DNA from: Methanobacteriota archaeon
GTDB taxonomy: Archaea; Thermoplasmatota; DTKX01; VGTL01
Assembly: GCA_016874675.1 (NCBI GenBank)
Contig: VGTL01000003.1
Location: forward strand, 11,346 to 75,345
Reading direction: 5' to 3'
DNA: 64,000 bases
The notes under the pieces were generated by a model. That model ran no database searches. It was not told the DNA's origin and worked only from the letters and a program-made list of their open reading frames with translations. The position numbers and the translations under genes are program-made. Below are positions 26,038 through 45,136 of this stretch, piece after piece (the first letter of the stretch is position 1; every line of letters begins with the position of its first letter).

Positions 26038-26039
26038 AG

Positions 26040-26160: not shown

Positions 26161-26251
26161 TTTATATAAGATAATTTATTTATACTTCATACTGTTACGA
26201 ACGTATATTGACGGAAGGTGGCTCGCTCTGAGGCGGTTCGTCGGGGCCGTC

Positions 26252-29200: not shown

Positions 29201-29359
29201 GGAACCGGAATCGACGTCGCCGGGGATGCCGGGAAGGGCGCCATCCAGGGCGAGACGCGAAAGACCGCGGAGGACGGCACCCGCAGGAAGGTACCGCCCA
29301 AGAGGTCCAAGAGGAGATCGAGGGACCGGGCCGGGCAGCGGGGAGGGGACAATCATTAA
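26252..29359 (+). CDS. Large type-I membrane protein. It has a signal peptide, about 8 cadherin-like / putative Ig (He_PIG-type) repeats and a PKD-like region, then one TM helix and a cytoplasmic Glu/Arg-rich coiled-coil tail.
   Basis: Repeats of the form ...ITSTPVTAALQGSPYYYLLTATDPDHDTLRFLVLSAPPNMTVNPLNGLVSWVPGQ.... TM helix ...ALTIIVALGAALAY.... Tail with ERLERKAREWDAALQKEREARELRERARE. Start uncertain (GTG 26252 or CTG 26228). An AT-rich promoter lies at roughly 26160-26215. Confidence 0.6.
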   Translation: MAVLSLLAGLPFQPVQASVYQASAEPVAPSWINPSSRPVAVIGINLSQNSGERLLEVGVSFTDTGGDGDFTTTDLLPLSKDASSGVALYLDNKSAGSFGTFDAADRPIALSAVPAWTAGNSSFRTLLRTGGTAIPANDLGNNTGPDLFVVVRTSSTASEGDDFSVSLGPDDVLVEGGPLDFPAADTDTITVDATSPRARAGPDITVDEGVETGFSAATSTDNIGIANYTWTFGDFGPDFRAWGVYVTHAFAAPGRFLVLLNVTDYAGNSDVAALTVTVRNVNQPPAITSTPVTAALQGSPYYYLLTATDPDHDTLRFLVLSAPPNMTVNPLNGLVSWVPGQGDVGGVSVTLGVTDDKSPVVRQSYTIEVRDVNDPPWFTSLPVYLATQGQSYSYRAGAQDPDNNQLVYGLVAGPANMTVGKFSGLVTWTPAWDQVGLNRVVLSASDGQYTVYQDFCVTVINTNDPPVIVSVPPTTALQGVPYGFRVQAFDPDGDVVRFFLNGSPPGMVLDEVSGVLDWTPSADQVGEVQVKLEATDRHGGQSNLSYTIIVVNVNDPPVITSAPPPTARQGSLYTYQVRVSDPDGDPVTLSLLSHPPGMSVNASSGVVEWVPGQESVGRAEASILASDGRGGIAVQSIQLAVQDTNDAPVFLGGIAPVAYQNQPYVSQVRAFDPDGDQLIYTLINPEEDISLDRQTGTLVWYPRVPQEAKIAVRVTDPNGTSADEVFTVTVRPSPVPPVVQSIGLLRARVGERFTYQIEASDPDGGRLRFSTPSRMLRINATTGVLSFTPRPADAGVHEFTVEVSDTGGMNTTATGVLVVDPEDGGFSLEGIFGFAMAGLAGIDPRLALTIIVALGAALAYQFARLRRLDELERPAGGEAPPGPAGVTEEERRALQLRQSRELEAREAAMRDAGTAGADAGMAAEERERLERKAREWDAALQKEREARELRERAREAGGPVLSREEQERLEREVEEELAAAGLGGTGIDVAGDAGKGAIQGETRKTAEDGTRRKVPPKRSKRRSRDRAGQRGGDNH

Positions 29360-29421: not shown

Positions 29422-30342
29422 ATGGCGCGCCGCAGGTTGAAGGGCAGTGGTGGCGCCCGGGCCGCTGCCGGCCGGCTGCCGCGCCCGTCCGGGGGCGGGC
29501 GCGCCGGTCCGGCGGCCCCGGGGCGGGCACCGGCAGCCGGGCCACCAGTCCTTCGGGCCGGCCACGTCGACGCCGACCGGTTCGAGCGCTCAAAGCGCGT
29601 GGGCTGGTTCGACTTCGAAAGGATACGGAAGGAGAGGGTGCTGGTGGTCGGGGCGGGGGCCCTGGGGAACGAGGTGGTCAAGAACCTCGTGCTCTCGGGC
29701 TACCGCCGGATATCCCTCGTGGACATGGACCGCGTGGTCTACTCGAACCTGAACCGGTGCGTCTTCTTCTCGGAGGAGGACTCCCGCCGGAAGAGGCTCA
29801 AGGCCGAGGTCGTGGCGAGCAAGGCCGGGCTCCTGGACCGCGAGGCCCGGATAGTACCGTACGACCATCGCATAGAGGAGCTCCCGGACGGTTTCTTCGG
29901 CGACCACGACCTCGTGCTCGGCTGCCTCGACAACATCGCCGCCCGGCTCCACATCAACGCCCGCACCTACCCGCGCCTCATTCCGTACGTGGACGGGGCC
30001 ACGCTCGGCACGGTGGGCAAGGTCCAGGTGGTGCTCCCGCCCGAGACGCCCTGCCTGGAGTGCGGGATGAACCGCACCCACATGAAGGTGCTCGAGAAGC
30101 GCTGGAGCTGCACCGGCCGGGACGTGACCTTCTTCGACCCCAAGCTCGCCGCCGAGATAACCACCACGAGCGTCATCGCGGCGGTCCAGGTGCGCGAGGC
30201 CCTCAAGCTGACCAGCCGCCGGCATGAAAGCTGCATCCGGCACATGTTCTACTACGACGCCACGAGGAACGTTTGCGATGTCCTGCAGGTCGACCTGAAC
30301 CCCAGATGCCCCCACCACGGGGCCCCGGAGGCCGTGGAATGA
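29422..30342 (+). CDS. E1-like ubiquitin/SAMP-activating enzyme (ThiF/MoeB/UBA family).
   Basis: Rossmann motif VLVVGAGALGNEVVKNLVLSGYRRISLVDMDRVVYSNLNRCVFF. CxxC zinc motif (ETPCLECG, later RCPHHG). A disordered Gly/Arg-rich N-terminal extension. The stop overlaps the next gene's ATG (ATGA). Confidence 0.75.
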   Translation: MARRRLKGSGGARAAAGRLPRPSGGGRAGPAAPGRAPAAGPPVLRAGHVDADRFERSKRVGWFDFERIRKERVLVVGAGALGNEVVKNLVLSGYRRISLVDMDRVVYSNLNRCVFFSEEDSRRKRLKAEVVASKAGLLDREARIVPYDHRIEELPDGFFGDHDLVLGCLDNIAARLHINARTYPRLIPYVDGATLGTVGKVQVVLPPETPCLECGMNRTHMKVLEKRWSCTGRDVTFFDPKLAAEITTTSVIAAVQVREALKLTSRRHESCIRHMFYYDATRNVCDVLQVDLNPRCPHHGAPEAVE

Positions 30343-33300
30343 AGGGCCGGTTCGACGCGCTCAAGTACGCCAAATCGCTCGAAAAGCAGCTGAGCGCCGA
30401 CCCGCGCAAGAAGAGGCTCCAAGACGACGTCGCCCGGCTCCAGTCCCGGCTCGCCGACGAGGGCAGGAAGGGCGCCGACGTCTCCGGCCTGGAGAGGCTG
30501 CTCTCGGACGCCTCCTCGGCCGTGGAGGGCGGCGACCTCGGCCTGGCCGAGGAGCTCGTCTCCAGGGCGGAGAAGGGGCTATCGGGGCTGGGGGCGCTCT
30601 CTGTCGAGGAGGCCATCGCTCGGGCGCGCCGGGCGGCCGAGGACGTCGGGATGCTGGGCCTCGACAACGTCCGGGCGCTGGAGCTGATAGGGCAGGCGGA
30701 GGACGCCATCCGAAAGAAAGACCACAGGTCCGCCCGGAAGCTGGCCGTCGCATCGCAAAAGGAGGCGGAAACGGCCCTGGAGGGATCGGTCCAGGACGCC
30801 CTGCCCTATGCCGAGGGCCTCGTCTCGGAGTGCGAGAGGTGCGGGATGGACGTATCGGGACTGCGGGGGAGGCTCTCCGCCGTCCGGGAGCTTTTGGGAA
30901 AGCGGGAGTACAACGCCGCCCTGCAGGAGTGCACCACGCTCGTCGAGGACATCGAGCCCGCCCGGAAGTCCTTCTTCCGCGAGCGCCTCGCCCGGGCGGG
31001 CGAATCCGTCGAGCGCGCCCGGGAGGGGGGCCGGGATGTCTCCGCGCTCGAGGGCTCCCTGGCCCGCGCCCGCAGGCTGCTCGACCTCAAGGACTTCGAG
31101 GGGGCCTGCGAGGCCCTCGGAGAGGTCGAGGCGGCCACAGGCGCGGCGGCGGCCCCGGCCGGCCCGCCGGGACCCGGCCCGGAGGCCCCCCCGGACGAGG
31201 TGGAGGAGGCCTCCGGGGTGCTCTCGGAGCTCAGGTCGGCCATCGCGGCCGGGACCAAGATGGGTCTTGACCTCAAGGCCGAAACGGCCAGGGTGCCCGA
31301 GGTCGAGGGCCTGTTGAAGGCCGGTGACGGCCGGGGCGCCGCCGCCGTCGGGCGGCAGGTGCTGGCGAAGGTGCGCGAGCGCCAGAAGGCCCTCTCCGGG
31401 AGCGCCATAGCGTCGCTCGAGGATGAGGTGGCCCGGCTCCGCAAGGGGGGCGCCTCGGTGGCCCCCGCGCAGAAGGTCCTCGAGCAGGCCTCCGAGAGGC
31501 TGCGGGCCGGCTCCCACGAGGAGGCGTTCGCCCTGGCCCGCCGGGCGGTCGACGAGCTCGACGCCCTCCGGGAAGGGATGGCCGGCTACGCGGAGGCGAT
31601 GTCCCGGTGCAAGGGCCTGCTCAAGGACGCCGCTGGGAGCCGGCTGGACTGCACGCTCGCCGAGCCCCTGGTCGAGGAGGCCCGGGCGGCCGCGGCCCGG
31701 GGCGAGTACCTCGCCGCTGCCGGGAAGCTCGCCGAGGCCCTCGGGTTGCTCGAGGACGCGATGGCCGGCCGGGCCGCCGGCGGCCTCCGGCGGGCGCTGG
31801 AGCTGGTCTCCCGCGCCGACGAGGAGGGGACGGACCTCGAGGACGTCGAGAGGCTGGCGCTCGACGGGCTGGCATTCGAGGAATCCGGGGAGGGCGGGCG
31901 GCTGGGCGAGGTGGCCGCCACCATCGAGCGGCTGGCGGGCTCGCGGGCCCGCTCATCGATGATGGCCCGGGACGCCCTCGACCGGGCCGGCGAGACGATG
32001 GCCGAGGCGATGATGGAGATGCTGGACGTCTCCGACGAGACCCGCAAGGTGGGGCTGGCCGGGGAGGCCCTGCAGAGGGGGGAGTACGAGGACGCCCGGT
32101 TCCTCGCGGAGGACGTCGCCCCGGCCCTCCGCCAGCGGTGCCGCGAGGCCCTGGACCAGTCCATATCGAAGGCGGCCTCGATGGTGGAGGAGCTGGGCCA
32201 GTCCGGGGCCGAGATGCCCCGGGCGCGGGAGTACCTCCGCAGGTCGCGCGAGCTCGCCGAGTGCGGCCGTTTCGGGCTGGGGCACTCCTACGCGCTGCAG
32301 GCGGTCCAGGAGGCCCGCGCGGTCGGCGACCGCTTCCGGGAGGCCCAGGACGCCCGCGCCGCCGTGGAGGCCATGCTCGAGAGCGCGACGGCGCTGGGGG
32401 TGCCCCGGGAGGATTTGGAGGCCGCCCTGTCGGAGGTCAGCTCGGCCATCGAGGTTCGCGCCTACGAGAGGGCAGTGGCGGCCGGGGCGGCCGGACTGGA
32501 GCGGGGCGAGGAGCGCTTCGCCCGGGAGGCCCGCGCCCTGGAGGCGGGCCTCTCCGAGCTCCTGTCGTCGCTTCGCAAGCTGCCCATCGATGGCTCGGCC
32601 GGGGCGGCGGCCCTCAAGGCCGCCCGGGGCCACCTGGGGAAGGCGGAGCACGCCGAGGCCATATCGGCGCTCAGGGGGCCGACCGAGAGCCTGTCGAGGG
32701 CGAGGCGGCAGTACGAGGATTCAGCGGCCGCGCTGGAGGCTGCGCTGGCGCGTCTGTCGGAGGCCGAGGGATACGGCCTGGACGTCTCCGAGATCAGGCC
32801 TGACCTCGAGGCCGCCTCCCGTGCCCATTCCTCCGGCGCCTACGACGAGGGATTCCGGCTTGCGCGCACCGCCCTGGAGCTGGGGGAGCACCTGATCTCC
32901 GAGAGGGCCGCGCAGGCGATGGGGGAGCTCCGGGACCTCCTGGAGTCCACCGAGCGGGCCGGCACCGTCCTCGACGACCTGCACGAGCGCGTCGGGGCGC
33001 TCTCCGGGTGCTTCTCGTCCAAGGCGTTCGGGGGGCTCTTCAAGGAGGCGGTGGCCATACGCGCCGAGATAGGGAGGCGCCGGGCGCGCCACTCCGAGGC
33101 GGTCACGGCCATCCAGGGCATCCAGGCCGCCATCGAGGAGGTCAAGGCGATGGGCGCGGACCTCAGCCCGACCGAGGACCTCCTGGGATTGGCGCGGTTC
33201 GCCTCCGAGCGGGGCTCCTATGACGATGTGCTGGACTACTCCCGGCGGGCGCAGTCGGAGCTCACCGCCGCCGCCGGATCGAGCGTGGACAGGCAGCGGG

Positions 33301-36300
33301 AGGCCCTCGCCGCGCGCATCGCCAGGCACGCCGGCGAGGGTGTGGAGCTTCGGGCCTGCCGGAACGCTCTTTTGGCCAACCCCGGCCTGCTTCCCGACGG
33401 CGGCTTCCGGGCCGTCCTGGCCGACCTCAAACGCATCGAGACCGACATGGAGGTGCGCCGGGACCAGCACCGCAACACCCAGAAGGTCCTGGCGGCAGCC
33501 GAGTCCCGCCTGACCGAGGCCGGGAGCCTGGGGGTCAACACCGCCGATGCCTCCCGGCTCCTCGAGTCGGCAAGGGGGGCCTCTTCGGCCGGCGACTACC
33601 CCAAGGCGGTGGAGCTCGCCGAGCAAGCGCGCGACATCGCCGCCCGCAGCACCGAGAGCCACCAGCAGACCATGGGCGCGATGGAGCTCGCCCGCGCCCA
33701 CCTGCGCGACGCCGAATCGATGGGGGCCGACATCGCCCGTGCCCGGGAGCTCCTGGAGCGGGCGGCCGCGATGTTCGCGGCGCGCAACTACGACGACGCC
33801 ATGGCCCTGGTGGTCGAGAGCGAGACCGATATCCTCCACTCGCAGGAGACGCTGGTGGGGGACACGATGGATCTTGCCCGCTCTACGCTGGATGAGGCCC
33901 AGAAGATCGGCGCCGACACGAACGGCGCCATGGAGCTCCTCGGGCGCGCCGAGAGCGCCAGGCAGGCGCGCGACTTCGGGCCGGCCTTTGCCCTGGCCCG
34001 GGAATCCTACGAGAGCGCCCAGGAGGAGCGTTCCCGCCACAGCACGGCCCTGGGGGCCCTCAGCGAGATCCAGGAGATGGTACAGAAGGCGCAGGCCGAG
34101 GGGGTGCGGGTGGAGCGCCTGGTGAAGGAGCTCGAGCACGCCCGGGAGGCCCTGCAGAGATTCGACTACGAGGGCTGCACCGGCACCGCCGAGCGGGTCC
34201 GGATGCAGGCGGAGGAGTGCATCGGCGCCGCCACGCAGGCCCGGCGGGCGCTGGAGCGCTGCGAGGCCGCCCTCCGCACGGCCACCGAGATGGCTGCCCA
34301 GACCAACGAGGGCGAGGGGCTGCTTCTCCGCTGCCGGGAGCAGTACCAGGCCGGCGAGTACCGCGCCGCCCTCTCCACCGCCGGGACCTGCCACGAGCGC
34401 CTGGCCGCCGCCCAGCACCGCCAGGTCTGGGGCGAGCTCGGCCAGCTGGTCCTCGAGCTAGACGACGCGGAGGATGCGGGGGCCGAGCTCTCGGCGGCGT
34501 GGGGGCTGGCCGAGGAGGCGGGGCTCGCGCTCGCCGGCGGGGACTTCCCCAGCGCGCTCCTGAGGACCCGGGCCGCCCGGACGAGGCTCGCCGAGGCCAC
34601 CCACGCGTTCGAGGGCATCTCCAGCGTCATGCTCGCCAGCCGCCTGATAGTGGACGAGGCGCGCTTCATGGAGGCCGACGTCGCGGTGGCCTCGGACCTC
34701 TCCGCCGGTGCCCAGAGCGAGCTTCGGGCGGGCAACTACCACGGCACCCAGGAGCTGGCGCTCCAGGCGGCGGAGGAGGCCACCCGCAACCAGAGGAGCC
34801 TCCTCAACCAGCTCATCTCGACGGCCGACCGGGCCGTGTCGGAGGCGGCGGGGTGGGGCATCAGGTCGCGCCTTGCGGTCGACCGGCTGGCGCGCTCCCG
34901 GACGGCGATGGAGTTCCAGGACTTCAAGGGGGCCCGCGACCTCCTCGAGGAGTGCGACGACGCGCTGGCGCAGGCGATAACCGACCACAAGGGCGTCTCG
35001 GACAGGATGGCCCAGCTCACCGAGTCCCTCGTGAGGGCCGAGGCGCTCGGCCTGGACCCAGCCCCCGTGCGGAAGGGGGCCGCCGAGGCCGAGACGCTGG
35101 CGGCCCGGGGCGAGTACTCCCGGGCGCTGGAGGCGCTGGGCGACCTGTCCCGGGAGCTGGCCGCGGCCGAGCGCACGCTGGTGTCGGACCGCCTGGAGCA
35201 ATCCCGATTGGCCCTGGAGGAGGCCCTCGCCCAAGGCGTGTTCATCGCCGATGCCGCCCGGGCCATTGAAGGGGCGAGGGGGGCCCTGGAGTCGGGGCAG
35301 TTCCAGTCCGCCCTGGAGCTTGCCGCGGAGGCATCGCGCACGGTGGAGAACAACCGCCAGGAGCACCGGCGGGTCACGGCGATCGTGATGGAGCTCTCCT
35401 CCGAAATCGAGTGCGGCAAGGAGCTGGGTGTGGGGGTCCCCGACTCGCCTGCCGTCCTCTCCGGCGCCCGGGAGCTCCTCTCCCGCGGGGAGTTCGCCCA
35501 GGCCGAGGAGCAGGCGCGCCGGGGCCGCGCCGCCGTGGCGAGCGCCCTCACCGGGGCGATGCAGGGCAACCTCTCCGCGCTGGAGGAGGAGCTGCGCGAG
35601 GCCGAGCGACAGGGCGTTAGGTCGGCGGTGGCCGCCGGGCTCCTGAAGGGGGCCGACCGGGACCTCCGCTCCAGATCCTACTCGGAGATGATCGGCCACA
35701 TCGAGGAGGCGCGCCGGGAGCTCGCCGCGGCCCGCCGGGCCCGTGAGCAGATCCAGCGGACGCTCGAGTCCATGGGCGAGAGGCTGAAGGAGACGGAGGC
35801 GCTGGGCGCCGACGGCGAGGCGGCCTCGGCGCTCGTGGGCCGCGCGATGGAGGTCTCCTCGGAGGGCGACTACGCCCAGGCCCTGGAGCTCCTGGGGGAG
35901 GCCGATCTTGCCGTCGAGGCCGCCCAGCGCGTCCGGGTGGAGGAGGCGCTCTCGGGGGCCTCGGCGCTCGTCGAGGAGGGCGACGCCATCGGCGCGGACA
36001 CGCGCGCCGCCCACAAGGCGCTCGCCGGCGCGAGGAAGGCCCTGGAGGGGAGGGACTACCGGGGGACCTCCGGGCTCGCCCGGGAGGCCCTCGAGGAGGC
36101 CGAGCGGCGGGTCGGGGAGCACCGGCGCAGCATCGAGACTGTGGCCGTATCGGAGAAGACGCTGGCGGACGCCGAGTCCGAGGGGCTGAACGTGGAGCGG
36201 CTGCGCCGCGTGCTGGAGGAGGCACGCCGCAGCCTGCGCAAGCACGACTACCCGGCGGTGGCGGAGGCGGCCGCCCGGATCGACCGGGAGGTCGGGACCC

Positions 36301-39300
36301 TCCTGCGCCAGTCCAGCGAGGCCCGGCGGCTGATAGGCTTCTGCGAGCGCAAAATCGACTCGGCGCGCCATATCGGCGCCGATGTCTCATCGGCGGAGGC
36401 CCTCCTGGCCGAGGCCCGGGCCGCCACGGAGAAGCGGGTCTTCGTGAAGGCCTTCGAGCTCGCCACCCAGTGCCTGCGGCAGATAGACAGCATGCAGCAC
36501 GCCGTCGTGCTGGGGTACCTCACCGACAGCGAGCTCCAGCTCGCCGAGATGGAGGAGGCGGGGGCCGACATCGCCGAGGCCCAGGAACTGATAGAGATCG
36601 CCATCGAGGCCCTCAACGAGAGCGAGTTCGAAAAATCCATGGAGCTCGGCCGCCAGGCGGTCGAGACCGCCCGGGGCAAGATGTCCCAGCACGAGCTGGC
36701 CGCCGAGAGGGTCCGGGAGCTCGAGCGCAAGATGAAGGACGCCACGGAGCTGGGCGGGGACCTGCGCTCCATCGAGAGGCTGCACTCCGAGGCCCGCTCG
36801 GCGCTCCAGTCCCACGACCACGCCCGCCTGGAGGCGATCGCCGGCGAGGCGCTGGAGGCGATGGTCGGCTCCCTCCACGAGCTGGTGGCCACCCGGACCG
36901 CCGAGGCCTCGGCGGTCATCTCGGGCGTCGAGGAGATAGGCGCGGCCGTGGCCAGGGCGCGCGACCGCCTGCTGCGGTCCCGGCGGGCGCTCGAGTGCGA
37001 CGACTTCAAGACGGCCCTCAACCTGCTTGAGGAATCCCAGAGCGCCGCGGGCGCCGCCCGGCTCAGGCACGCCGAGACTCTCGAGGGCGTCAAGGGGCTC
37101 CAGAACATGGCCCGGGAGGCCTCCGAGCTGGGGCTGGACGTGTCGCGGGCCCGGTGGGCGCTGGCCGAGGTGGACGAGGCCATCGACGAGGGCCAGTACG
37201 ACCAGGCCGACCGCATAATCTCCGAAACGCGCGCCGAGCTGGAGAAGGGCTACCTCAGCCACGCCGAGCAGGCGCTCGCCCGGACGGAGGAGGCGCTGGT
37301 CAAGACCCGGGAGCTGGGGGCGGACGTCGGGGCCGAGGTGAAGGCCCTGGCCGAGCTGCGCGTCATCTTCTCGCAGGGACGCTACCAGACGGTGATGAAG
37401 TCGTGCCGGGAATGCCGGCGCAGGCTGGACGAGAGGCTCAACGAGCACATCGCCGGGATCATCCTCCGGGCCGAGAACCTCATAAACGAGGCGGGGAAGG
37501 TGGGGGTGGACGCCCGGGAGTACCGGGAGACCCTGGAGCGCTCCGAGGAGACCGTCAGCGAGGGCGACTACGAGGCGGCCCTCCGTTTGGCCAGCGAGGC
37601 CATCGACCGGACCCGGGCGCTCCTGCGCAGCTCCATATCGGGAACGATATCGACCCTGGGGGGGCTGATAGAGGAGTCGCGCCGCATCGGGGCCGACGTC
37701 CGGGAGGTGGAGGAGTACTCCCGGCAGGCGCTCTCGGCCCTGCAGAAGGACGAGTACGAGCTCGCCCACGACCACGCCCTCTCGGGCATCGCGGCGGTGG
37801 ACCGCGTCCGGGAGGAGTTCATCGTCCGCCGCAGGCAGGAGGTCGAGCGCAAGATCTCCGAGGCCGAGGCGATGGGGGCCCAGGTGGAGGACTTCCGCCG
37901 CTCGACGGCCAAGGCCCAGGAGTTCCTGGAGAGGGCGGACTTCGAGAAGGCCGCCCTGCTGCTTCAGGAGACGGAGGAGAACACCCTCAAGCGGCAGTCG
38001 CGCGTGGCCGAGGAGAGCATCCGCCGGGCCGAGGAGCAGCTCGCCAAGGTGAAGATGGACATAGACCTGGCCCGGGCCCGCTCGCTCCTCGACGAGGCGC
38101 GCAGCGCCCTGGGATACGGGGAGTTCGAGGAGGCGGTGGACTACTCGGTGCAGTGCGTGGAGGAGACGAACCGCGTCCAGGCCCAGTTCGTCGAGGAGGT
38201 GATCGGCACCACGGAGGAGACCATCGCCGCGGCCGCCCAGATGGGCGCCGACACCCAGAAGGCGCGCGAGCTCCTCGACTACTCGCGCGCCGACCGGGAG
38301 GCGGGCAACTTCGACGCCGCCCTGGCGAAGGCTGTGCAGGGGGCGGAGGAGGCCGAGCAGGCCCAGTACGACTTCGTGCGCGGGCCCATCGAGCACATCC
38401 GCCGGGTGATGAAGGAGGCCCGGCTCTCCGACGACAGGATAAAGCGGCTGATGGCGGCGGCCGAGGGGCACCTCGAGAAGAAGGAGTACCAGGAGGCCCG
38501 CCGGGAGGTCATGCGCGCCATGGACCTCACCGGGGAGATCCAGGAGAAGCTCGCCCGCAAGGAGATAATGGACTCCGAGGAGGTCGTGGCCGGGGTCGAG
38601 AAGGCGGGGGCGGTCTCGCCCGTCGCCCGCAACCTGCTCCGGAGCGCCCTGACCGCCATCAACGCCCGCGACTTCGAAAAGGCCATGAAGTTCTCCCGCG
38701 AGTGCTCCGTTCAGGCCATGAAGACGCGCGACGAGTTCGCCTCCGCCCAGAGGGCCCAGACTGCGGCGGAGGCCGAGATCGCCACCCTGAACGAGCTGGG
38801 CCTCATGACCGAGGAGACGGGGGACCTTCGGGACCTCTCGAGGTCCGGGTTCTCCTCCGGCGATTACATGAAGTCGAAAGAGTACTCCGCCCAGGTGGTC
38901 CACAAGGCGGAGTCGCTCTACTTCAAGGCGGCCGGAGAGGCCCTCTCCTCGTCCCAGTTCAAGATAAACTACGCCAGAAACATCGGGGCGGACGTCAGCA
39001 CGGCCGAGAGCCTGCTTCGCGACGCGAAGGCCGCAAACGAGTCCCGGGACTTCCGCCGCACCCTCGAGCTCGCCCGGCGCTGCCGAGAGGAGGCCGAGAG
39101 GGCCAAGGAGCGCTACAAGGAGCTCGTGGACACCATCTACTCCGCCGAGTCGAAGATATCGGTCGCCCACACCTACGGCCTGGACACCTCCGCCGCCGAG
39201 CGGCTGCTCTCGATGGCGGTGGCCCAGAAGTCGAAAAACGGCGAGGAGGCCCTCGATTTCGCCCGCCAGAGCATGGAGGAGGTCCAGCGGGCCCTCGAGA

Positions 39301-39824
39301 GGTTCACCCCCGACATCAAGGTCGAGATAAAGCTCGAGGGGGTGCTCCAGAAGGAGCGGTGGAGCCAGGCCTCCCTGACCATCTCGAACACCGGGAAGGC
39401 GACGGCCAAGGACATCTCCGTGCGCTTCAGCGGCGACCTCGAGGTGCAGGGCGGCGAGCGCGTGAGCGTTCTGCGCGGCGGGGAGAGCCGGAGGCAGTCC
39501 GTGCGGGTCCGGCCCTCGAAGGGCGGGGACCTGCCCCTGGGAACGAGCGTGGTGAGCTTGAGGGAGTTCGACGACAAGGAGTTCCGGTCACAGGAGACGC
39601 GCTGGATCCGCGTGGAGGACGCCACACCCCTGGCGACGCCCCTCAACCAGTTCGTCACCAAGTCCGTGAGGTGCCATATCTGCCTGGGCACGATAAAGTC
39701 CGGGCTGCCCCTCGTGCGGTGCGAGTGCGGCAAGACCTACCACGAGACCTGCGCCTCGCGCGTGGGGGAGTGTCCCAACTGCGGGCGGGACCTGCATAAC
39801 GTCGGCCCGGGCGGGGGGGGCTGA
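30339..39824 (+). CDS. Giant (3161 aa) alpha-helical repeat protein: about 40 tandem copies of a 65-75-aa unit, a beta-rich domain, then a C-terminal C4HC3 RING-variant/PHD-like zinc finger. Candidate E3-like scaffold.
   Basis: Repeat core G-[AV]-D-[VT]-x3-A-x2-LL-x2-A-x2-A-x4-[DE]-[YF]-x2-A-x2-LA, for example GADVSRARELLERAAAMFAARNYDDAMALV. C-terminus CHICLGTIKSGLPLVRCECGKTYHETCASRVGECPNCG fits C-x2-C-x12-C-x-C-x4-H-x2-C-x6-C-x2-C. Translationally coupled to the E1 gene. Confidence 0.7.
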   Translation: MKGRFDALKYAKSLEKQLSADPRKKRLQDDVARLQSRLADEGRKGADVSGLERLLSDASSAVEGGDLGLAEELVSRAEKGLSGLGALSVEEAIARARRAAEDVGMLGLDNVRALELIGQAEDAIRKKDHRSARKLAVASQKEAETALEGSVQDALPYAEGLVSECERCGMDVSGLRGRLSAVRELLGKREYNAALQECTTLVEDIEPARKSFFRERLARAGESVERAREGGRDVSALEGSLARARRLLDLKDFEGACEALGEVEAATGAAAAPAGPPGPGPEAPPDEVEEASGVLSELRSAIAAGTKMGLDLKAETARVPEVEGLLKAGDGRGAAAVGRQVLAKVRERQKALSGSAIASLEDEVARLRKGGASVAPAQKVLEQASERLRAGSHEEAFALARRAVDELDALREGMAGYAEAMSRCKGLLKDAAGSRLDCTLAEPLVEEARAAAARGEYLAAAGKLAEALGLLEDAMAGRAAGGLRRALELVSRADEEGTDLEDVERLALDGLAFEESGEGGRLGEVAATIERLAGSRARSSMMARDALDRAGETMAEAMMEMLDVSDETRKVGLAGEALQRGEYEDARFLAEDVAPALRQRCREALDQSISKAASMVEELGQSGAEMPRAREYLRRSRELAECGRFGLGHSYALQAVQEARAVGDRFREAQDARAAVEAMLESATALGVPREDLEAALSEVSSAIEVRAYERAVAAGAAGLERGEERFAREARALEAGLSELLSSLRKLPIDGSAGAAALKAARGHLGKAEHAEAISALRGPTESLSRARRQYEDSAAALEAALARLSEAEGYGLDVSEIRPDLEAASRAHSSGAYDEGFRLARTALELGEHLISERAAQAMGELRDLLESTERAGTVLDDLHERVGALSGCFSSKAFGGLFKEAVAIRAEIGRRRARHSEAVTAIQGIQAAIEEVKAMGADLSPTEDLLGLARFASERGSYDDVLDYSRRAQSELTAAAGSSVDRQREALAARIARHAGEGVELRACRNALLANPGLLPDGGFRAVLADLKRIETDMEVRRDQHRNTQKVLAAAESRLTEAGSLGVNTADASRLLESARGASSAGDYPKAVELAEQARDIAARSTESHQQTMGAMELARAHLRDAESMGADIARARELLERAAAMFAARNYDDAMALVVESETDILHSQETLVGDTMDLARSTLDEAQKIGADTNGAMELLGRAESARQARDFGPAFALARESYESAQEERSRHSTALGALSEIQEMVQKAQAEGVRVERLVKELEHAREALQRFDYEGCTGTAERVRMQAEECIGAATQARRALERCEAALRTATEMAAQTNEGEGLLLRCREQYQAGEYRAALSTAGTCHERLAAAQHRQVWGELGQLVLELDDAEDAGAELSAAWGLAEEAGLALAGGDFPSALLRTRAARTRLAEATHAFEGISSVMLASRLIVDEARFMEADVAVASDLSAGAQSELRAGNYHGTQELALQAAEEATRNQRSLLNQLISTADRAVSEAAGWGIRSRLAVDRLARSRTAMEFQDFKGARDLLEECDDALAQAITDHKGVSDRMAQLTESLVRAEALGLDPAPVRKGAAEAETLAARGEYSRALEALGDLSRELAAAERTLVSDRLEQSRLALEEALAQGVFIADAARAIEGARGALESGQFQSALELAAEASRTVENNRQEHRRVTAIVMELSSEIECGKELGVGVPDSPAVLSGARELLSRGEFAQAEEQARRGRAAVASALTGAMQGNLSALEEELREAERQGVRSAVAAGLLKGADRDLRSRSYSEMIGHIEEARRELAAARRAREQIQRTLESMGERLKETEALGADGEAASALVGRAMEVSSEGDYAQALELLGEADLAVEAAQRVRVEEALSGASALVEEGDAIGADTRAAHKALAGARKALEGRDYRGTSGLAREALEEAERRVGEHRRSIETVAVSEKTLADAESEGLNVERLRRVLEEARRSLRKHDYPAVAEAAARIDREVGTLLRQSSEARRLIGFCERKIDSARHIGADVSSAEALLAEARAATEKRVFVKAFELATQCLRQIDSMQHAVVLGYLTDSELQLAEMEEAGADIAEAQELIEIAIEALNESEFEKSMELGRQAVETARGKMSQHELAAERVRELERKMKDATELGGDLRSIERLHSEARSALQSHDHARLEAIAGEALEAMVGSLHELVATRTAEASAVISGVEEIGAAVARARDRLLRSRRALECDDFKTALNLLEESQSAAGAARLRHAETLEGVKGLQNMAREASELGLDVSRARWALAEVDEAIDEGQYDQADRIISETRAELEKGYLSHAEQALARTEEALVKTRELGADVGAEVKALAELRVIFSQGRYQTVMKSCRECRRRLDERLNEHIAGIILRAENLINEAGKVGVDAREYRETLERSEETVSEGDYEAALRLASEAIDRTRALLRSSISGTISTLGGLIEESRRIGADVREVEEYSRQALSALQKDEYELAHDHALSGIAAVDRVREEFIVRRRQEVERKISEAEAMGAQVEDFRRSTAKAQEFLERADFEKAALLLQETEENTLKRQSRVAEESIRRAEEQLAKVKMDIDLARARSLLDEARSALGYGEFEEAVDYSVQCVEETNRVQAQFVEEVIGTTEETIAAAAQMGADTQKARELLDYSRADREAGNFDAALAKAVQGAEEAEQAQYDFVRGPIEHIRRVMKEARLSDDRIKRLMAAAEGHLEKKEYQEARREVMRAMDLTGEIQEKLARKEIMDSEEVVAGVEKAGAVSPVARNLLRSALTAINARDFEKAMKFSRECSVQAMKTRDEFASAQRAQTAAEAEIATLNELGLMTEETGDLRDLSRSGFSSGDYMKSKEYSAQVVHKAESLYFKAAGEALSSSQFKINYARNIGADVSTAESLLRDAKAANESRDFRRTLELARRCREEAERAKERYKELVDTIYSAESKISVAHTYGLDTSAAERLLSMAVAQKSKNGEEALDFARQSMEEVQRALERFTPDIKVEIKLEGVLQKERWSQASLTISNTGKATAKDISVRFSGDLEVQGGERVSVLRGGESRRQSVRVRPSKGGDLPLGTSVVSLREFDDKEFRSQETRWIRVEDATPLATPLNQFVTKSVRCHICLGTIKSGLPLVRCECGKTYHETCASRVGECPNCGRDLHNVGPGGGG

Positions 39825-39864
39825 GGGAATGCGGGCACGGGGCGGAGCGAGGGGGCCGAGCCGC

Positions 39865-39905
39865 TACATGCCAGGGACAAAAAGTAAATATAAGGAAATG
39901 CGAAT
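39865..39905 (+). promoter_or_regulatory. AT-rich promoter-like element upstream of the Ub-like gene.
   Basis: caaaaagtaaatataaggaaatgcgaatatgg, a TATA-like taaatataagg in GC-rich context. An aggggt RBS-like sequence precedes the ATG at 39981. Confidence 0.4.
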
Positions 39906-39980
39906 ATGGTTGCCGTAAAGGGTACAAAGCGGAGGTTTTGACGGACTACGGCCTTGCTCGGCTGCGGGAAAGGGGTATTG

Positions 39981-40223
39981 ATGACCACCAGGGTGACGAT
40001 AAAGGACGCGGACACCGGCAGCAGGATCGAGATGGACCTTGAACCGGACAACACCATCGAGGAGACCATCGAGAGCGCCGCCAGCTACTGGGAGAAGGAG
40101 GCCGGGGCGTACGTCCTCCGCTGCGGCAAGAGGGTGCTCCGCGGTCAAATCACGCTTGCCGAATCGGGGATCCGAGAGGGCGATGTCCTGGAGCTCATCC
40201 CCGATCCCGAGGGCGGAGCGTGA
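39981..40223 (+). CDS. Small ubiquitin-like beta-grasp protein (80 aa) ending ...PEGG-A.
   Basis: MTTRVTIKDADTGSRIEMDLEPDNTIEETIE...VLELIPDPEGGA. Ubiquitin-like in length and pattern, with a C-terminal diglycine followed by one extra residue. Confidence 0.6.
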   Translation: MTTRVTIKDADTGSRIEMDLEPDNTIEETIESAASYWEKEAGAYVLRCGKRVLRGQITLAESGIREGDVLELIPDPEGGA

Positions 40224-40390
40224 GAGCCCCCTTGGCCGTCGCGCTGGGCCGGGGGAGGGGAGAGGGAACCGGGGTGCTGGGTCGGACCGGGACGGGCCGG
40301 TCCCGTGAAGGGGGGGTGTGAGGAACGCCGCTTCCCAAGGAGATACTTCGAAGGAGGCTCCAGAACGAGATAGCCCAGGTCCGCCGCAAG

Positions 40391-40873
40391 ATGATCCACA
40401 CCATCGTGGTCTCGGACCCCACTTTCAGCACGTTCCCCGTGGAGATAAAGGTCACGCTGCGCGGCGTGCCGGGGCCCATCCTTCGCGACGGCAAGGTCTC
40501 CCACAAGTTCACCCACAAGTTCACGATGGAGATCACCGATGACTATCCCTATCACAAGCCCATAGTGAGGTGGGAGACGCCGGCGTTCCACCCCAACGTG
40601 ATGCTCCCCGAGGACGGCGGCTACGTGTGCACGCGCCTTTTAGACGAGTGGGACTTCAACTCGACGCTGCTCACCTTCTTCAAGGGCATAGAGTCGCTTC
40701 TGTCCAACCCCAATCCCGCCAACCCGTACGGCACGGACAGCTGCACCCGCGCCGCCGAGTACTTCAACAAGCACCCCTACAAGCCCCCCGAGATAGTCCA
40801 GTCCGCCAAGAAGGCGCCGCGGATACTCGGGGACCGCAACGAGCCCGAGCGGGCGGGCGACCCGGGCGGGTGA
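40391..40873 (+). CDS. E2-like ubiquitin-conjugating enzyme (UBC fold).
   Basis: HPN motif and catalytic Cys in ...WETPAFHPNVMLPEDGGYVCTRLLDEWDFNSTLLTFF.... The upstream in-frame sequence LRRRLQNEIAQVRRK resembles the UBC N-terminal helix, so the true start may lie upstream at 40322-40390. Confidence 0.65.
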   Translation: MIHTIVVSDPTFSTFPVEIKVTLRGVPGPILRDGKVSHKFTHKFTMEITDDYPYHKPIVRWETPAFHPNVMLPEDGGYVCTRLLDEWDFNSTLLTFFKGIESLLSNPNPANPYGTDSCTRAAEYFNKHPYKPPEIVQSAKKAPRILGDRNEPERAGDPGG

Positions 40874-40916
40874 GCCCAACGGCCGAAGCGTCCGCGACAT
40901 CGGGGGTGCAGTAGGC

Positions 40917-41858
40917 TTGTCGGACCGGCCCAAGATCGTCGCCGAGAGGAAGCGCCGGGCCCGCGAGATGAAGCCGCCCCAGGACTTCATCATCCACGAG
41001 TGGGGGAAGCCCTACGCCGGCATAGAGGTCTACATATCCCAATTGGCGTTCGACAAGATGATGAAGCAGTGCTCTCTCTACGCCAAGCGCCACCTCGAGG
41101 CGCTGGGCTACCTGGTGGGCGACTACTGCCGGTGGAAGAACAAGGAGTACACCATAGTCGAGGACGCCGTGACCTCGGACCTGGACACCACCTCCGTGTC
41201 GGTCCACTTCCAGGCCTTCGAGAAGGCGTTCGACCAGCTGGACCGGATAGACTTCGACTACGTCCTCGTCGGCTGGTACCACTCCCACCCGGGCCACGGC
41301 TGCTTCATGTCCCAGACCGACATATCGACGCAGAAGCGGATGTTCAACAAGTCGTTCCACCTAGCGATAGTCATCGACCCCATCAACAAGGAGTTCAAGG
41401 TCTACAAGATGGACGGCCCGGTGCCGGAGGAGAAGGTCTTCGGGATATACCGCAACCTCAACGGCGAGGGGCCTCCCTCCCTGGAGGTGCACGGGCCCGG
41501 CGCGGAGGGCTATGCGCCCTACGGGGACCGGAACTCGACGCCGGCCTACGAGCCCGGGTCGGCGCCCCGCGGGGGGGCCGCCCGGGCCAAGGCGGCCGCC
41601 CGCACCGAGGCCGAGCGCATCGCCCGCGAGCGCGAGAGCCAGCGCCGCTCCCGCGAGCGCGCCGCCGAGAGGACCCGGCTCTTCAGCACGGCGCTGCTCC
41701 TCTTGCCGCTCTTCTTCGCGGCTTTCGGCGGGGTGCTGGGCTTCGCCCTCGCGTTCCAGAGGGACCGCGTGGCGGCGTGGGTCATCCTGGCCGTCGGCGG
41801 GGTCATGACCGTCCTCTGGGCATTGTGGGCGGCGGCGGGACCGCCGTTCATTGGGTAG
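40917..41858 (+). CDS. JAMM/MPN+ metalloprotease (Rpn11/deubiquitinase-like) with a C-terminal membrane anchor.
   Basis: Exact JAMM motif GWYHSHPGHGCFMSQTDI (H-S-H-x7-S-x2-D) with an upstream Glu. C-terminal hydrophobic helices LFSTALLLLPLFFAAFGGVLGFALAF and VAAWVILAVGGVMTVLWALWAAAG. Confidence 0.75.
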   Translation: MSDRPKIVAERKRRAREMKPPQDFIIHEWGKPYAGIEVYISQLAFDKMMKQCSLYAKRHLEALGYLVGDYCRWKNKEYTIVEDAVTSDLDTTSVSVHFQAFEKAFDQLDRIDFDYVLVGWYHSHPGHGCFMSQTDISTQKRMFNKSFHLAIVIDPINKEFKVYKMDGPVPEEKVFGIYRNLNGEGPPSLEVHGPGAEGYAPYGDRNSTPAYEPGSAPRGGAARAKAAARTEAERIARERESQRRSRERAAERTRLFSTALLLLPLFFAAFGGVLGFALAFQRDRVAAWVILAVGGVMTVLWALWAAAGPPFIG

Positions 41859-41859
41859 A

Positions 41860-42002
41860 TCGGCTCGGGGGACGTGTTGTTGATATCGGTTAGGGGGACT
41901 TGTTTTTCCTGTCGGTGAATGGAAGACGGCGGTAGAAAAACGAATGTACTTGTTCTCGTCTACCCCCTACCCGATCTCACCCGCACGTCCCCCGAACCGA
42001 TT
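41860..42002. terminator. Long imperfect inverted repeat between the convergent JAMM and leuB genes. Likely a bidirectional terminator.
   Basis: Arms cggctcgggggacgtgttgttgatatcggttagggggac and gtctaccccctacccgatctcacccgcacgtcccccgaaccg flank a T/A-rich centre (cttgtttttcc ... gaaaaacgaa). Confidence 0.4.
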
Positions 42003-43151
42003 TCATATTCTCCCCACCTTCGCTGCTATCGCCGTCGCCAGGGCCATGGTGCCCATGCTCCCGCCCATGTCCGGGGTGCGGACGCGGCCCTCGCGGATGA
42101 CCTGGGCCACCGCGGCCTCGACCCGGCCGGCCCTCTCTTTCTCTCCGAGCCACCCGAGCATCAGCCTGGCCGACAGGACCGCCGCCACGGGGTTGGCCAC
42201 GCCGCGGCCGGCGATGTCGGGCGCCGAGCCGTGGGCGGGCTCGAACATCGCGTAATCGTCGCCGATGTTGGCCCCCGGGGCGAACCCCAGCCCCCCGACG
42301 AGCTGGGCGCAAAGGTCCGACAGGATGTCGCCGAACATGTTGGTGGTGACCAGCACGTCGAAGTGAAGGGGGTCGCCCACCAGCCTCATCGCGCAGGCGT
42401 CCACCAGCATCTCCTCGTACTCGATTTCGGGGTGGTCGCGGGCGACCTCCCTGACCGCCGACAGGAAAACGCCATCGGTGGCGCGCAGGACGTTGGCCTT
42501 GTGCACCGCGGTCACGCGGCGCCTCTCCCCGTCCCTGCCGGCGATGCCCGCGCGGGCGGGCCAGCTGCGGCGCGGGACGGACGCGGCGTGCTCGAACGCC
42601 GATTTGGCTATCCGGTGGGAGGCCCTCTTCGTTATGGCCCGGACGGCTATCGCGGCCTGCCGCGGGACCCGCTCCATCCCCCGGATCTCGTAAAGCTCCT
42701 GCGGTATCCGGTCCCACTCGACGCCCGAGTACATCCCCTCGGTGTTCTCCCGGAAGATCGTTATATCGACGCCCTCGCGCATGTTCCCGGGGTTCCCGGG
42801 ATAGGCCCTGCAGGGCCGAAGATTCGTAAAGAGGTCGAACATCCTGCGGATGCGTACGACGGCGCCCGAGTAGCGGGCCCCCCTGGCCCTCTGGGCCTCG
42901 GAGAGCTCGGCCATCGCGTCCGCCTCCGGCTTAGAGGTCACCGCGCCGAAGAGCGCGCAGTCCGTCCTCCGCAGGAGCTCGATGGTGCGGTCCGGGAGGG
43001 GCGTGCCCTCCTTCCTCCAGAACTCCCAGCCGATGTCCCCGGGCATGTACCGGGCCTCGAACCCCGTGGCGTCCAGCACCAGCCGGGCGGCGCCCAGAAC
43101 CTCCCGCCCGATGCCGTCGCCCGGCAGCCAGGCGATGTCAGGCCTTGCCAT
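42003..43151 (-). CDS. leuB: Isopropylmalate/isocitrate dehydrogenase family enzyme. Probably 3-isopropylmalate dehydrogenase, given the adjacent leuCD.
   Basis: LPGDGIGREV...NLRP...IFRENTEGMYSG...TTNMFGDILSDLCAQLVGGLG... are the family motifs. Confidence 0.7.
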   Translation of the reverse strand: MARPDIAWLPGDGIGREVLGAARLVLDATGFEARYMPGDIGWEFWRKEGTPLPDRTIELLRRTDCALFGAVTSKPEADAMAELSEAQRARGARYSGAVVRIRRMFDLFTNLRPCRAYPGNPGNMREGVDITIFRENTEGMYSGVEWDRIPQELYEIRGMERVPRQAAIAVRAITKRASHRIAKSAFEHAASVPRRSWPARAGIAGRDGERRRVTAVHKANVLRATDGVFLSAVREVARDHPEIEYEEMLVDACAMRLVGDPLHFDVLVTTNMFGDILSDLCAQLVGGLGFAPGANIGDDYAMFEPAHGSAPDIAGRGVANPVAAVLSARLMLGWLGEKERAGRVEAAVAQVIREGRVRTPDMGGSMGTMALATAIAAKVGRI

Positions 43152-43632
43152 GCGGAAGCCTCCTTCTGGTGTGCGGCACCAGCCCCCCGTCCTCCAGGAT
43201 GTCCATCATGAACCTCGGCAGCCGCTCGCCGTCCAGGACGCGCCTCCCGCGGCCGCACCGCAGGGTGCCTGCGGAGAGATCGACCAGGACGCGCTCGCCC
43301 TCCCTCACGGCCTTGCGGGCGCCCGGGCACCGGAGCACCGGGAGGCCCACGTTCACGGCGTTTCGGAAGAATATCCGGCCGAACGAGCCGGCCACGATGG
43401 CCTGGACGCCCGCGGCCTTCAGGGCCATCGGCGCCTGCTCCCGGCTGGAGCCCACGCCGAAGTTTAGGCCGGCCACGATGACCCGCCCCGAGAGGCGCCG
43501 CCCCGCCGGGAGGGCTCCCTCGAGGGCATGGGGGGCGAGCCTCCCCGGGTCCGCCGTCCGGCAGTGCTTCCCGGCGATTATCGCGTCCGTGCTCACTGCG
43601 TCGCCCAGGAGGAGGGCTCGGCCCCGGACCAT
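43138..43632 (-). CDS. leuD: 3-isopropylmalate dehydratase small subunit (aconitase-family swivel domain).
   Basis: MVRGRALLLGDAVSTDAIIAGKH...VIVAGLNFGVGSSREQAPMALKAAGVQAIVAGSFGRIFFRNAVNVG. Confidence 0.75.
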   Translation of the reverse strand: MVRGRALLLGDAVSTDAIIAGKHCRTADPGRLAPHALEGALPAGRRLSGRVIVAGLNFGVGSSREQAPMALKAAGVQAIVAGSFGRIFFRNAVNVGLPVLRCPGARKAVREGERVLVDLSAGTLRCGRGRRVLDGERLPRFMMDILEDGGLVPHTRRRLPHGKA

Positions 43633-44897: not shown

Positions 44898-44959
44898 CGC
44901 TGGTCGCTGGACACGTAGGGTGAGGTTGGTTATTTTCTTTTGCCCCTCGCCCGCCGGAA

Positions 44960-45136
44960 TCAGCGCTTCTCGATGAGCTCGACGAGCGTCCCGTCCGGGT
45001 CCTCGACGAAGGCTATCTCGGCCCGGTTCTGGGGTATGGGCCGTCGGCTGGCCAGCCTCATGCCGAGGAAAGCCTCGTAGAAACGGATGGAGCGCTCCAG
45101 GTCCGAGCTCCTTACGGATACATGCGCGAAAGTCAT
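44960..45136 (-). CDS. Small VOC/glyoxalase-like domain protein (58 aa, single beta-alpha-beta-beta-beta module).
   Basis: MTFAHVSVRSSDLERSIRFYEAFLGMRLASRRPIPQNRAEIAFVEDPDGTLVELIEKR. Confidence 0.4.
   Translation of the reverse strand: MTFAHVSVRSSDLERSIRFYEAFLGMRLASRRPIPQNRAEIAFVEDPDGTLVELIEKR

Follow-up and report, generated by a model that had tools for sequence, protein, structure and literature searches.

Positions 29422-41858 of the stretch of DNA analysed here (64,000 nucleotides from contig VGTL01000003.1 of assembly GCA_016874675.1, hereafter the window; G+C ~69%) are likely to encode, in an uncultured archaeon of the Thermoplasmatota, a ubiquitin-type system for protein conjugation, with a giant protein as its scaffold-type RING ligase (E3). 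The window's listing of open reading frames (ORFs) contains five there, all on the plus strand, as an original prediction of five co-oriented genes, made from the sequence, had it. They encode a minimal E1-like adenylating enzyme of 306 amino acids (aa; 29422-30342), the giant E3 candidate of 3,161 aa (30339-39824), the 80-aa precursor of a ubiquitin-like protein (Ubl; 39981-40223), a ubiquitin-conjugating enzyme (E2) of the UBC fold (almost certainly 40325-40873, 182 aa) and an Rpn11-like metalloprotease of the JAMM/MPN+ type (40917-41858, 313 aa), and each of the five passes at least one profile or fold test. The conjugation system itself is probably real and functional.

The original prediction described these genes as a complete eukaryote-like cassette of a kind known from only a few archaeal lineages. 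The parts are indeed all present; the likeness to eukaryotes fails in the architecture of the E1, which lacks both the inserted catalytic-Cys domain and the ubiquitin-fold domain (UFD), and the supposed rarity has to be given up. E1-Ubl-E2-JAMM modules are common in metagenome-assembled genomes (MAGs) of Thermoplasmatota, the named relatives of the window proteins all come from Thermoplasmata or Thermoplasmatota MAGs, and the E2 is found in identical form on 12 metagenome contigs. The NCBI entries for the locus (MBM4248010-14, from a 'Euryarchaeota archaeon' MAG) already label the E2 a ubiquitin-conjugating enzyme, while the giant, the Ubl and the JAMM protein are called 'hypothetical'.

The ubiquitin-like protein

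The small protein appears from sequence comparison to belong to the ubiquitin family, as had been predicted, and not with the sulfur carriers ThiS and MoaD or with SAMP. The window sequence itself falls just under the Pfam thresholds for YukD and ubiquitin. Among its 11 orthologues, which are 56-99% identical to it, Pfam recognises ubiquitin in 10 (best 1.4e-8), Rad60-SLD in seven and YukD in seven, with weak ThiS matches in four (best 2.9e-4). A profile of the family, searched against the PDB, retrieves ubiquitin, poly-ubiquitin, Rad23-UBL and Rub1, and no ThiS, MoaD, SAMP or Urm1 structure is found among its best 60 matches. The sequence ELIPDPEGG is invariant in the 11 orthologues and is followed by 0-5 residues, i.e. 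by none at five loci and otherwise by A, G, H, KR, RW or HGQRV; judged from the alignment, such variable short tails after the di-glycine are the pattern of ubiquitin-type precursors. In the window the two Gly codons lie at 40212-40217 and are followed by a single Ala, so the predicted GG-A end is present.

The activating enzyme

The E1 matches Pfam ThiF with an E-value of 1.2e-45, and in a search of the PDB the active adenylation domains of UBA7, UBA1, UBA3 and SAE2 (~1e-23) are found ahead of MoeB (1.6e-16) and ThiF (1.3e-12), which agrees with the ThiF/UBA identity and the CxxC motif first read from the sequence. The alignment to the canonical E1 structures is limited to residues 65-211. 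Against NCBIfam the enzyme scores 107 with the ThiF model (cut-off 275), 83 with MoeB (266) and 73 with UbaA (450). The E1 family is 57-86% identical over more than 100 clusters, and an alignment of nine orthologues delimits a common conserved core of ~255 aa, whose invariant elements include the CxxC, an SCTG sequence 17 residues further on and a C-terminal NPxC[P/T]xH. In the window these motifs are found at 30049-30063 (zinc CxxC), 30106-30117 (SCTG) and 30307-30318 (C-x2-H), downstream of a GxGxxG at 29650-29673. The same alignment shows no inserted catalytic-Cys domain and no UFD, the core stopping at the C-terminal zinc site, and the crossover region of ~30 aa contains one invariant Cys, that of SCTG. 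The catalytic Cys of ThiF is Cys184, and that of UBA5 is Cys250, with zinc ligands at 226, 229, 303 and 308. From these positions we take the SCTG Cys to be the counterpart of the catalytic Cys that minimal E1s have in the crossover loop, which makes Cys230 the candidate catalytic residue of the window enzyme. The enzyme would be expected to work like an E1, but its architecture is not that of the Caldiarchaeum or eukaryotic type because the Cys domain and the UFD are absent. Such a minimal, UFD-less E1 raises the question of how a UBC-type E2 is charged without the canonical recruitment domain.

The conjugating enzyme and its start codon

The UBC fold, the HPN motif and the catalytic Cys ascribed to the E2 by the original prediction are all borne out, whereas the ATG at 40391, taken there as its start, is replaced by a start 66 nt upstream. 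The 160-aa product from ATG 40391 matches the Pfam family UQ_con above the gathering score (3e-14) and covers profile positions 44-124; extended to 40325, the match improves to 9.9e-15 (54.8 bits, gathering 27) and covers positions 1-124. The HPN lies at 40589-40597 and the catalytic Cys102 within 40622-40633. Both align with their counterparts in the structures of clam E2-C, human UBE2C, Rad6 and Ubc9 (best 8e-13), and both are invariant among the E2 orthologues.

The form of the E2 that begins at ATG 40391 is without helix alpha1, the usual E1/E3-binding helix of E2s. The 21 in-frame codons 5' of this ATG (PLPKEILRRRLQNEIAQVRRK) match the N-termini of orthologous E2s, and in comparisons involving the related loci L014 and L019 synonymous changes make up 11/13, 6/8 and 11/13 of the differences in these codons. 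An in-frame TGA stands at 40319-21, and there is no ATG, GTG or TTG between it and 40391. The codon ACG at 40325, which is also found in the independent assemblies L001 and L002 and aligns with CTG in L014, L019 and L022, sits 6-7 nt 3' of a conserved Shine-Dalgarno-like run, GGGGGGTG(A). Furthermore, the 182-aa protein P0303, from the same 90% cluster as the window E2, begins with MPLPKEIL at exactly that codon, which is ATG there. Because the upstream codons are conserved, the UQ_con coverage extends over them and P0303 begins there, the start is put at 40325, and the E2 is almost certainly a protein of 182 aa with a near-cognate ACG start. Alternatively, the population in question may make an E2 without alpha1. 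Read-through of the Ubl stop codon into the E2 was considered as another source of the N-terminus, but the two genes are in different frames in the window, and the idea was dropped.

The JAMM protease

The predicted H-S-H-x7-S-x2-D motif is present at 41280-41321, and the conserved Glu of the family lies within 41097-41120. The closest solved relative is yeast Rpn11 (5e-15), followed by Rpn11 of C. subterraneum (4e-13) and CSN5 (1.7e-9). In Pfam, the protein matches JAB with 5.7e-12 (45.9 bits, gathering 22.5) and Prok-JAB with 1.1e-7; the NCBIfam model of the haloarchaeal desampylase gives a score of 22 against a cut-off of 130. The protein carries ~150 additional aa at its C-terminus, comprising a low-complexity linker and two predicted transmembrane (TM) helices (41679-41756 and 41769-41840). 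According to alignment and TM scan this TM tail is absent from the orthologues in L007-L013, L017 and L022, and as a lineage-specific addition it would anchor the protease in the membrane.

The giant protein

The repeat array of the giant occupies residues 45-2978 (30471-39272) and consists of ~47 helical repeats of ~63 aa with a super-period of 126 aa, in keeping with the repeat scaffold first proposed. The autocorrelation of its BLOSUM scores peaks at lags of 62-64, 126 and 252, and an iterated hidden Markov model found first 35 and then 43 repeat matches. The repeat has a conserved core of 34 aa, GADVSRARELLERAREALEAGDYEAALELAREAL, and the protein is composed of 17% A, 13% E, 11% L and 11% R. 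No Pfam family matches the repeat, and the TM scan found no TM segment in the giant, which is predicted to be cytosolic.

The C-terminus of the giant has only sub-threshold Pfam matches, to CARDB, Prok-RING_1 and zf-RING_2. The last 223 residues were modelled with AlphaFold2 from a 20-sequence alignment of distant relatives; the model has a mean predicted local distance difference test score (pLDDT) of 89.8 and comprises a helical hairpin (the last repeat), a beta-sandwich of ~100 residues, immunoglobulin (Ig)-like and of the CARDB type (39309-39617), and a small finger (39672-39782). The eight zinc ligands of this C4HC3 finger, probably of the Prok-RING_1 type, are spaced C-x2-C-x12-C-x-C-x4-H-x2-C-x6-C-x2-C, and giants that are 50-55% identical overall agree at every position of a 43-residue stretch that includes the finger.

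The original prediction left the finger between a RING variant and a PHD. Its sequence alone gives marginal matches in the PDB, RING-H2 ligases first. A profile was built from 43 fingers of the family, whose eight zinc ligands are all invariant; it finds the RINGs of Arkadia/RNF165, RNF24, RNF4, Doa10 and ZNRF at 1e-6 to 1e-3, and the first PHD, that of Pygopus, at 2.5e-3. The commonest Pfam match of these fingers is Prok-RING_1 (40 of 43, best 7.7e-9); 37 match zf-RING_2, and 14 match C1_2 weakly. Against Prok-RING_1, for which the gathering score is 29.1, the window finger reaches 25.8 bits alone (E 1.1e-5) and 18.2 within the whole protein, and a 1,455-aa relative has a precomputed match to this family with an E-value of at most 1e-5. 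Modelled alone, the finger has a pLDDT of 90.2, and the best 50 Foldseek matches of this model are all RING E3 domains. RING profiles and structures thus match the finger better than those of PHDs do, and the confident model supports a cross-brace RING. This RING is a candidate for binding the E2.

The family of the giant and its genomic context

A word-indexed search with the C-terminal 223 aa returned five near-identical fragments, and the giant looked like an orphan. This view did not survive an exhaustive search, in which the C-terminal module was run with HMMER and 652 cluster representatives were found, 198 of them at E <=1e-10; the named members are all Thermoplasmatota. Many of the proteins are ~1,450-1,590 aa long, several ~3,100 aa and one 4,891 aa. 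The module stands at the extreme C-terminus in most of them, some bear 2-4 fingers, and the relatives of about 1.5 thousand aa share the repeat of the giant. The giant thus belongs to a large RING family specific to this lineage and is not a one-off, and its pairing with E1 is conserved. What the original prediction said of the architecture, a giant E3 candidate in place of a small RING protein, stands. Multi-finger or very large members include P0155/P0280 (1,987 aa), P0196, P0183 and P0200 (4,891 aa), some of which have 2-4 fingers in tandem, and one member of the family is annotated as DUF2341-containing. In L024 (1718-6923), a 1,496-aa repeat-RING member lies directly 3' of an ScpB (SMC_ScpB) gene.

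Orthologues of the giant were found in the same position in L014 (3,145 aa), L019 (3,106 aa) and L022 (3,129 aa), with a further one of 3,019 aa in L023. In four further lineages (L014/L015, L019, L022 and L023) the giant overlaps or abuts the 3' end of the E1 gene, and three of those loci have an E2. The neighbourhood of the cassette, for which the original prediction proposed a survey of related genomes, recurs in some of them. The full order of Ig-type membrane protein, E1, giant, Ubl and E2 is shared by L014, L015 and L019, whose E1s are 75-77% identical to that of the window. L022 is much more distant, the C-terminus of its giant being 33% identical to that of the window; its order is E1, giant, small ORF, E2 and JAB. 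The small ORF at the Ubl position of L022 (19514-19849) encodes a 111-aa protein that looks helical or repeat-like, ends in ...VVGGD and has no homology with the beta-grasp Ubl; nor did a homologue of the Ubl turn up elsewhere in this 29-kb locus. The ORF could be a different di-glycine protein or an artefact of gene calling.

In L023, the gene of the proteasome-activating ATPase PAN, on the minus strand, and a HTH_3 gene on the plus strand are followed by E1 and the giant (positions 2985-6014 span the PAN/HTH_3 part). The same pair is found upstream of the cassette in the window, i.e. PAN at 21249-22472 on the minus strand, where it had been predicted and where it matches Prot_ATP_ID_OB_C, AAA and AAA_lid_3, and a divergent HTH_3 regulator at 22573-23214 on the plus strand; an MMPL transporter and the Ig-type protein are inserted before E1. 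The shared order PAN-HTH_3-E1-giant hints that the cassette is linked to PAN.

Further relatives show other arrangements. A compact E1-Ubl-E2-JAB operon is present in L011 and L012, Ubl-E2-JAB without an adjacent E1 lies beside the gene of a class-I lysyl-tRNA synthetase (LysRS) in L008 and L013, and in L017, a genome of 1.99 Mb, Ubl-E2-JAB is 1.5 kb from E1. Unknown ORFs near E1 or E2 in L016, L017 and L020 were tried as RING proteins and rejected; they encode a beta-helix protein, a prenyltransferase-like protein, a small membrane protein and secreted repeat proteins.

The upstream membrane protein and the proposed transcription units

The gene upstream of E1 (26252-29359, plus strand) encodes a membrane protein with matches to He_PIG (3e-49), Big_9, Cadherin_4 and PKD in Pfam. 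It has an N-terminal signal or TM segment, an extracellular PKD/He_PIG/cadherin-like Ig array and, by hydropathy scan, a TM helix at 28787-28840 followed by an E/R-rich cytoplasmic tail of ~170 aa, and is thus predicted to be a single-pass type I protein. The tails of its orthologues in the sister genomes L014 (9940-10056), L015 (7912-8028) and L019 (6270-6386) end in a C4HC3 RING of the same family as that of the giant, and these orthologues are, judged from their domains, receptor-like transmembrane RING proteins. The window copy has a longer E/R-rich tail instead of the finger. No RING is present in any frame of this tail, and a six-frame regular-expression scan of the whole window finds the finger of the giant only.

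Two islands rich in A and T were found by a scan of 26.2-41.9 kb. The strongest in the region, TATA-like, is at 26153-26209 (TTTTATATAAGATAATTTATTTATAC) and is enclosed by the listed ORF 25961-29359; since it lies inside this ORF, the membrane-protein gene is taken to start downstream of it, probably at GTG 26252. The MMPL gene (23518-26037) is therefore a separate unit. The other island, at 39872-39908 on the plus strand (CAGGGACAAAAAGTAAATATAAGGAAATGCGAATATG), has 17 of 20 bases A or T, against a window mean of 6.4 of 20, and no other such island occurs between 26209 and 41932. An archaeal promoter (TATA box and TFB-recognition element, BRE) for Ubl-E2-JAMM may lie here, at the place where an AT-rich promoter of the Ubl gene had been expected. 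There is no AT-rich island between the membrane protein and E1, which are probably co-transcribed. The ATGA at 30339-30342, shared by the E1 stop and the giant start as originally read, is consistent with translational coupling of the two genes. The island map would fit the two transcription units that had been proposed, i.e. membrane protein, E1 and giant in one and Ubl, E2 and JAMM in the other.

Proposed pathway and alternative explanations

A pathway can be put together for these proteins, every step of it by homology. The JAMM protease would shorten the Ubl precursor of 80 aa by the one residue that follows the di-glycine. The minimal, MoeB-sized E1, probably a homodimer, would adenylate the C-terminus of the Ubl and then hold it as a thioester on the SCTG Cys in the crossover loop, as UBA5 does, before the Ubl is handed to Cys102 of the E2. 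The C-terminal RING of the giant would dock the charged E2, its beta-sandwich and ~47 repeats would offer a substrate-binding or scaffolding surface, and the giant would in this way act as a scaffold-type RING E3. The membrane-anchored JAMM might also undo the modification. The membrane protein may be a partner or a substrate of the system, because in sister genomes a RING sits on its cytoplasmic tail, and the proximity of PAN hints at a proteasomal outcome. In evolutionary terms, E1-Ubl-E2-JAMM would be the ancestral module, and in this clade the gene of the giant lies between E1 and Ubl.

Several observations weigh against this account. The window finger stays under the gathering score of Prok-RING_1 (25.8 vs 29.1), and in our own reading against the textbook RING it lacks both the canonical linchpin residue right after the last Cys and the Trp that RING-H2 domains have in their helix. 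Members of the family with about 1.5 thousand aa can sit apart from ubiquitin-type genes, and many Ubl-E2-JAB relatives have no RING gene nearby, so an E3 is perhaps not obligatory. The E1 is without the UFD, the domain through which canonical E1s recruit the E2, and without the Cys domain, and the lack of a canonical start for the full-length E2 may mean that little of it is made, or a form without alpha1. In addition, all functions of the cassette are predictions from sequence and fold.

The most serious alternative is that the conjugation core is real and the giant is not an E3: it might be a structural or scaffold protein or the main substrate, with a finger that binds peptide, lipid or nucleic acid, and conjugation would proceed without an E3, as in SAMP, Urm1 or Bil-type systems. 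We consider this unlikely. The Thermoplasmatota Ubl-E2-JAB loci without a RING gene nearby, the ~1.5-thousand-aa members encoded apart and the weak C1_2 matches of 14/43 fingers speak for it, but the best fold and profile matches of the finger are E2-binding RING E3 domains, 40/43 fingers match Prok-RING_1, and the giant follows E1 directly in four further lineages, at three loci with an E2; the invariance of the finger over 43 residues, moreover, is what one would expect if it served a constant partner, for instance the highly conserved E2. Less probable still is a defence system against viruses, of the Bil, CBASS-Cap2-Cap3 or Bub kind, that would tag proteins of an invader. Huge repeat proteins are generally known to be common in conflict systems, and bacterial operons of E1, E2, Ubl and JAB act in phage defence in the instances described in PMC10557695 and PMC11601596. 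PADLOC gives weak matches of the E1 to CBASS E1-E2 fusions (7e-11, at most 39 bits) and to BilD (3e-6, 24 bits) and of the JAMM protein to defence JAB models. It gives none for the Ubl and the E2, so Bil or CBASS Cap2-Cap3 membership is not indicated for the set, and the E2 is a canonical UQ_con member. The strong conservation of the E1 family (57-86% over more than 100 clusters) and neighbours of a housekeeping kind (LysRS, transketolase, ribosomal proteins, alanyl-tRNA synthetase, PAN) instead of defence islands also argue against it.

Least probable of all, and in our opinion hardly to be entertained, is an ordinary sulfur-carrier system of the SAMP/ThiS/MoaD type, serving cofactor synthesis or tRNA thiolation, beside which the other genes would lie by chance. 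The MoeB-like size and zinc site of the E1, its lack of a UFD and the weak ThiS matches in 4/11 Ubl orthologues are what such a system would lead one to expect. Against this, the E1 scores higher with eukaryotic E1s than with MoeB and ThiF, the ThiF, MoeB, UbaA and desampylase models of NCBIfam stay far under their cut-offs (107/275, 83/266, 73/450 and 22/130), the best 60 structures found by the Ubl profile are all of the ubiquitin family, and the operon has conserved both a genuine UBC E2 and a RING finger. The tests that the original prediction named as able to reduce the cassette to such a system came out in favour of the ubiquitin-type reading. A ubiquitin-type conjugation system with the giant as its RING E3 is thus the reading that we prefer.

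Relation to known systems

In the operons of Candidatus Caldiarchaeum subterraneum (Aigarchaeota) and of Asgard archaea the same five functional parts occur together, according to the descriptions of gene content in the reports concerned (Nunoura 2011, PMC3082918; PMC5654768; PMC6043591). The window locus resembles them in the form of the Ubl, a precursor with GG and a tail, in the HPN/Cys core of the E2 and in the RING-type finger, and it resembles Caldiarchaeum in a JAMM closest to Rpn11, CsRpn11 itself being matched (4e-13). The E1 differs: the archaeal E1s of Cluster I/II, as characterised in PMC5654768, have a catalytic-Cys domain and a C-terminal Ub-like domain, whereas the window E1 core of ~255 aa is without both. 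Unlike the small RING protein of Caldiarchaeum and Asgard, the E3 candidate here has 3,161 aa, with 47 repeats, a beta-sandwich and the RING; the host belongs to the Thermoplasmatota (Euryarchaeota) and not to TACK or Asgard; the JAMM is predicted to be membrane-anchored; and the sister genomes have a second RING on a receptor-like protein.

Archaeal 'Cluster III' E1s have been described as lacking the C-terminal Ub-like domain (Hennell James 2017, PMC5654768), and in the Cluster III and bacterial operons outlined there the E1 without this domain is, as in the window, combined with Ubl, E2 and JAB and sometimes a RING. Unlike in those operons, the window E2 scores directly on the eukaryotic UQ_con family and on eukaryotic E2 structures. 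By description, the JAMM can be likened to the 'JAMM-3' group of prokaryotic JAMMs, which are encoded in Ub/E1/E2 operons and are nearer to Rpn11/CSN5 than the desampylases are (Fuchs 2018, PMC6043591), since here, too, an Rpn11/CSN5-like JAMM is encoded with Ub, E1 and E2. In that work E3-like RING partners are given only for the Caldiarchaeum and Asgard systems, and in this respect the window operon, which includes a RING protein, differs from it.

The haloarchaeal SAMP/UbaA/HvJAMM1 system has a beta-grasp GG modifier, an E1-like activator and a JAMM in a euryarchaeon with PAN and proteasome, as in the window; it is without an E2 or E3, and the window Ubl falls on the ubiquitin side, not that of ThiS/MoaD. 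In giant eukaryotic scaffold E3s, e.g. UBR4, BIRC6 and MYCBP2, a very large body of helical repeats terminates in a catalytic module. The giant likewise combines a helical scaffold of several thousand residues with a terminal zinc-finger ligase module, an analogy only, as no Pfam family matches its repeats and no sequence homology to repeats of the UBR4/BIRC6/MYCBP2 type was detectable. Burroughs, Iyer and Aravind are said to have defined the Prok-RING families of Pfam in 2011 and to have predicted the conjugation of YukD-like Ubls. In the searchable literature we found no description of a repeat/beta-sandwich/RING protein after E1, nor of a ubiquitin/E2/RING system in Thermoplasmata or Thermoplasmatota, of which an earlier mention in Burroughs et al. 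2011 is possible. From one Marine Group II single-cell genome, Grau-Bové et al. described no more than scattered genes for RINGs and deubiquitinases.

Implications

Eukaryote-like operons for ubiquitylation that include an E3 are characterised solely from Caldiarchaeum and inferred for Asgard, and they have been used in arguments on the origin of eukaryotic ubiquitin. A conserved and widespread euryarchaeal system with a UBC E2, a ubiquitin-family tag, an Rpn11-like protease and its own RING family alters this phyletic picture, and the Thermoplasmatota proteins offer a second, independent prokaryotic set for reconstitution. The giant repeat-RING proteins and the membrane-receptor RING proteins of the sister genomes would be among the largest prokaryotic RING-type E3 candidates known to us, and they provide a concrete entry to the targets of an archaeal ubiquitin system.

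A bolder reading, which we hold to be possible but doubtful, is that Thermoplasmatota own a complete, vertically inherited E1-E2-RING-E3 pathway, distinct from that of Aigarchaeota and Asgard and linked to PAN and the proteasome. It would have two ligase architectures, repeat scaffolds of 1.5-4.9 thousand aa with a beta-sandwich and a RING, and receptor-like Ig-array membrane proteins with a cytoplasmic RING; for neither did we find a prokaryotic example described in the searchable literature. If this were true, the turnover of surface proteins by way of ubiquitin would have its equivalent in Euryarchaeota, a membrane-anchored Rpn11-like protease taking part in it, and the E1/E2/RING triad would be older than the split between Euryarchaeota and TACK/Asgard or would have been transferred early between those lineages.

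Other genes in the window

Directly 3' of the cassette, on the minus strand, 42003-45533 encodes an isopropylmalate/isocitrate dehydrogenase-like protein and aconitase-family small and large subunits (leuB/leuCD-like). An ORF on the plus strand that overlaps these genes (41919-43211) has no Pfam match and is probably spurious. Another CARDB-domain protein (CARDB 1e-19, DUF11) is encoded on the minus strand at 17227-19050, and the minus-strand ORFs 19158-19877 and 19950-20831 have no Pfam match. A tRNA match of 107 nt was found with Rfam at 6450-6556 (48 bits) and none by ARAGORN; its length suggests an intron-containing archaeal tRNA.

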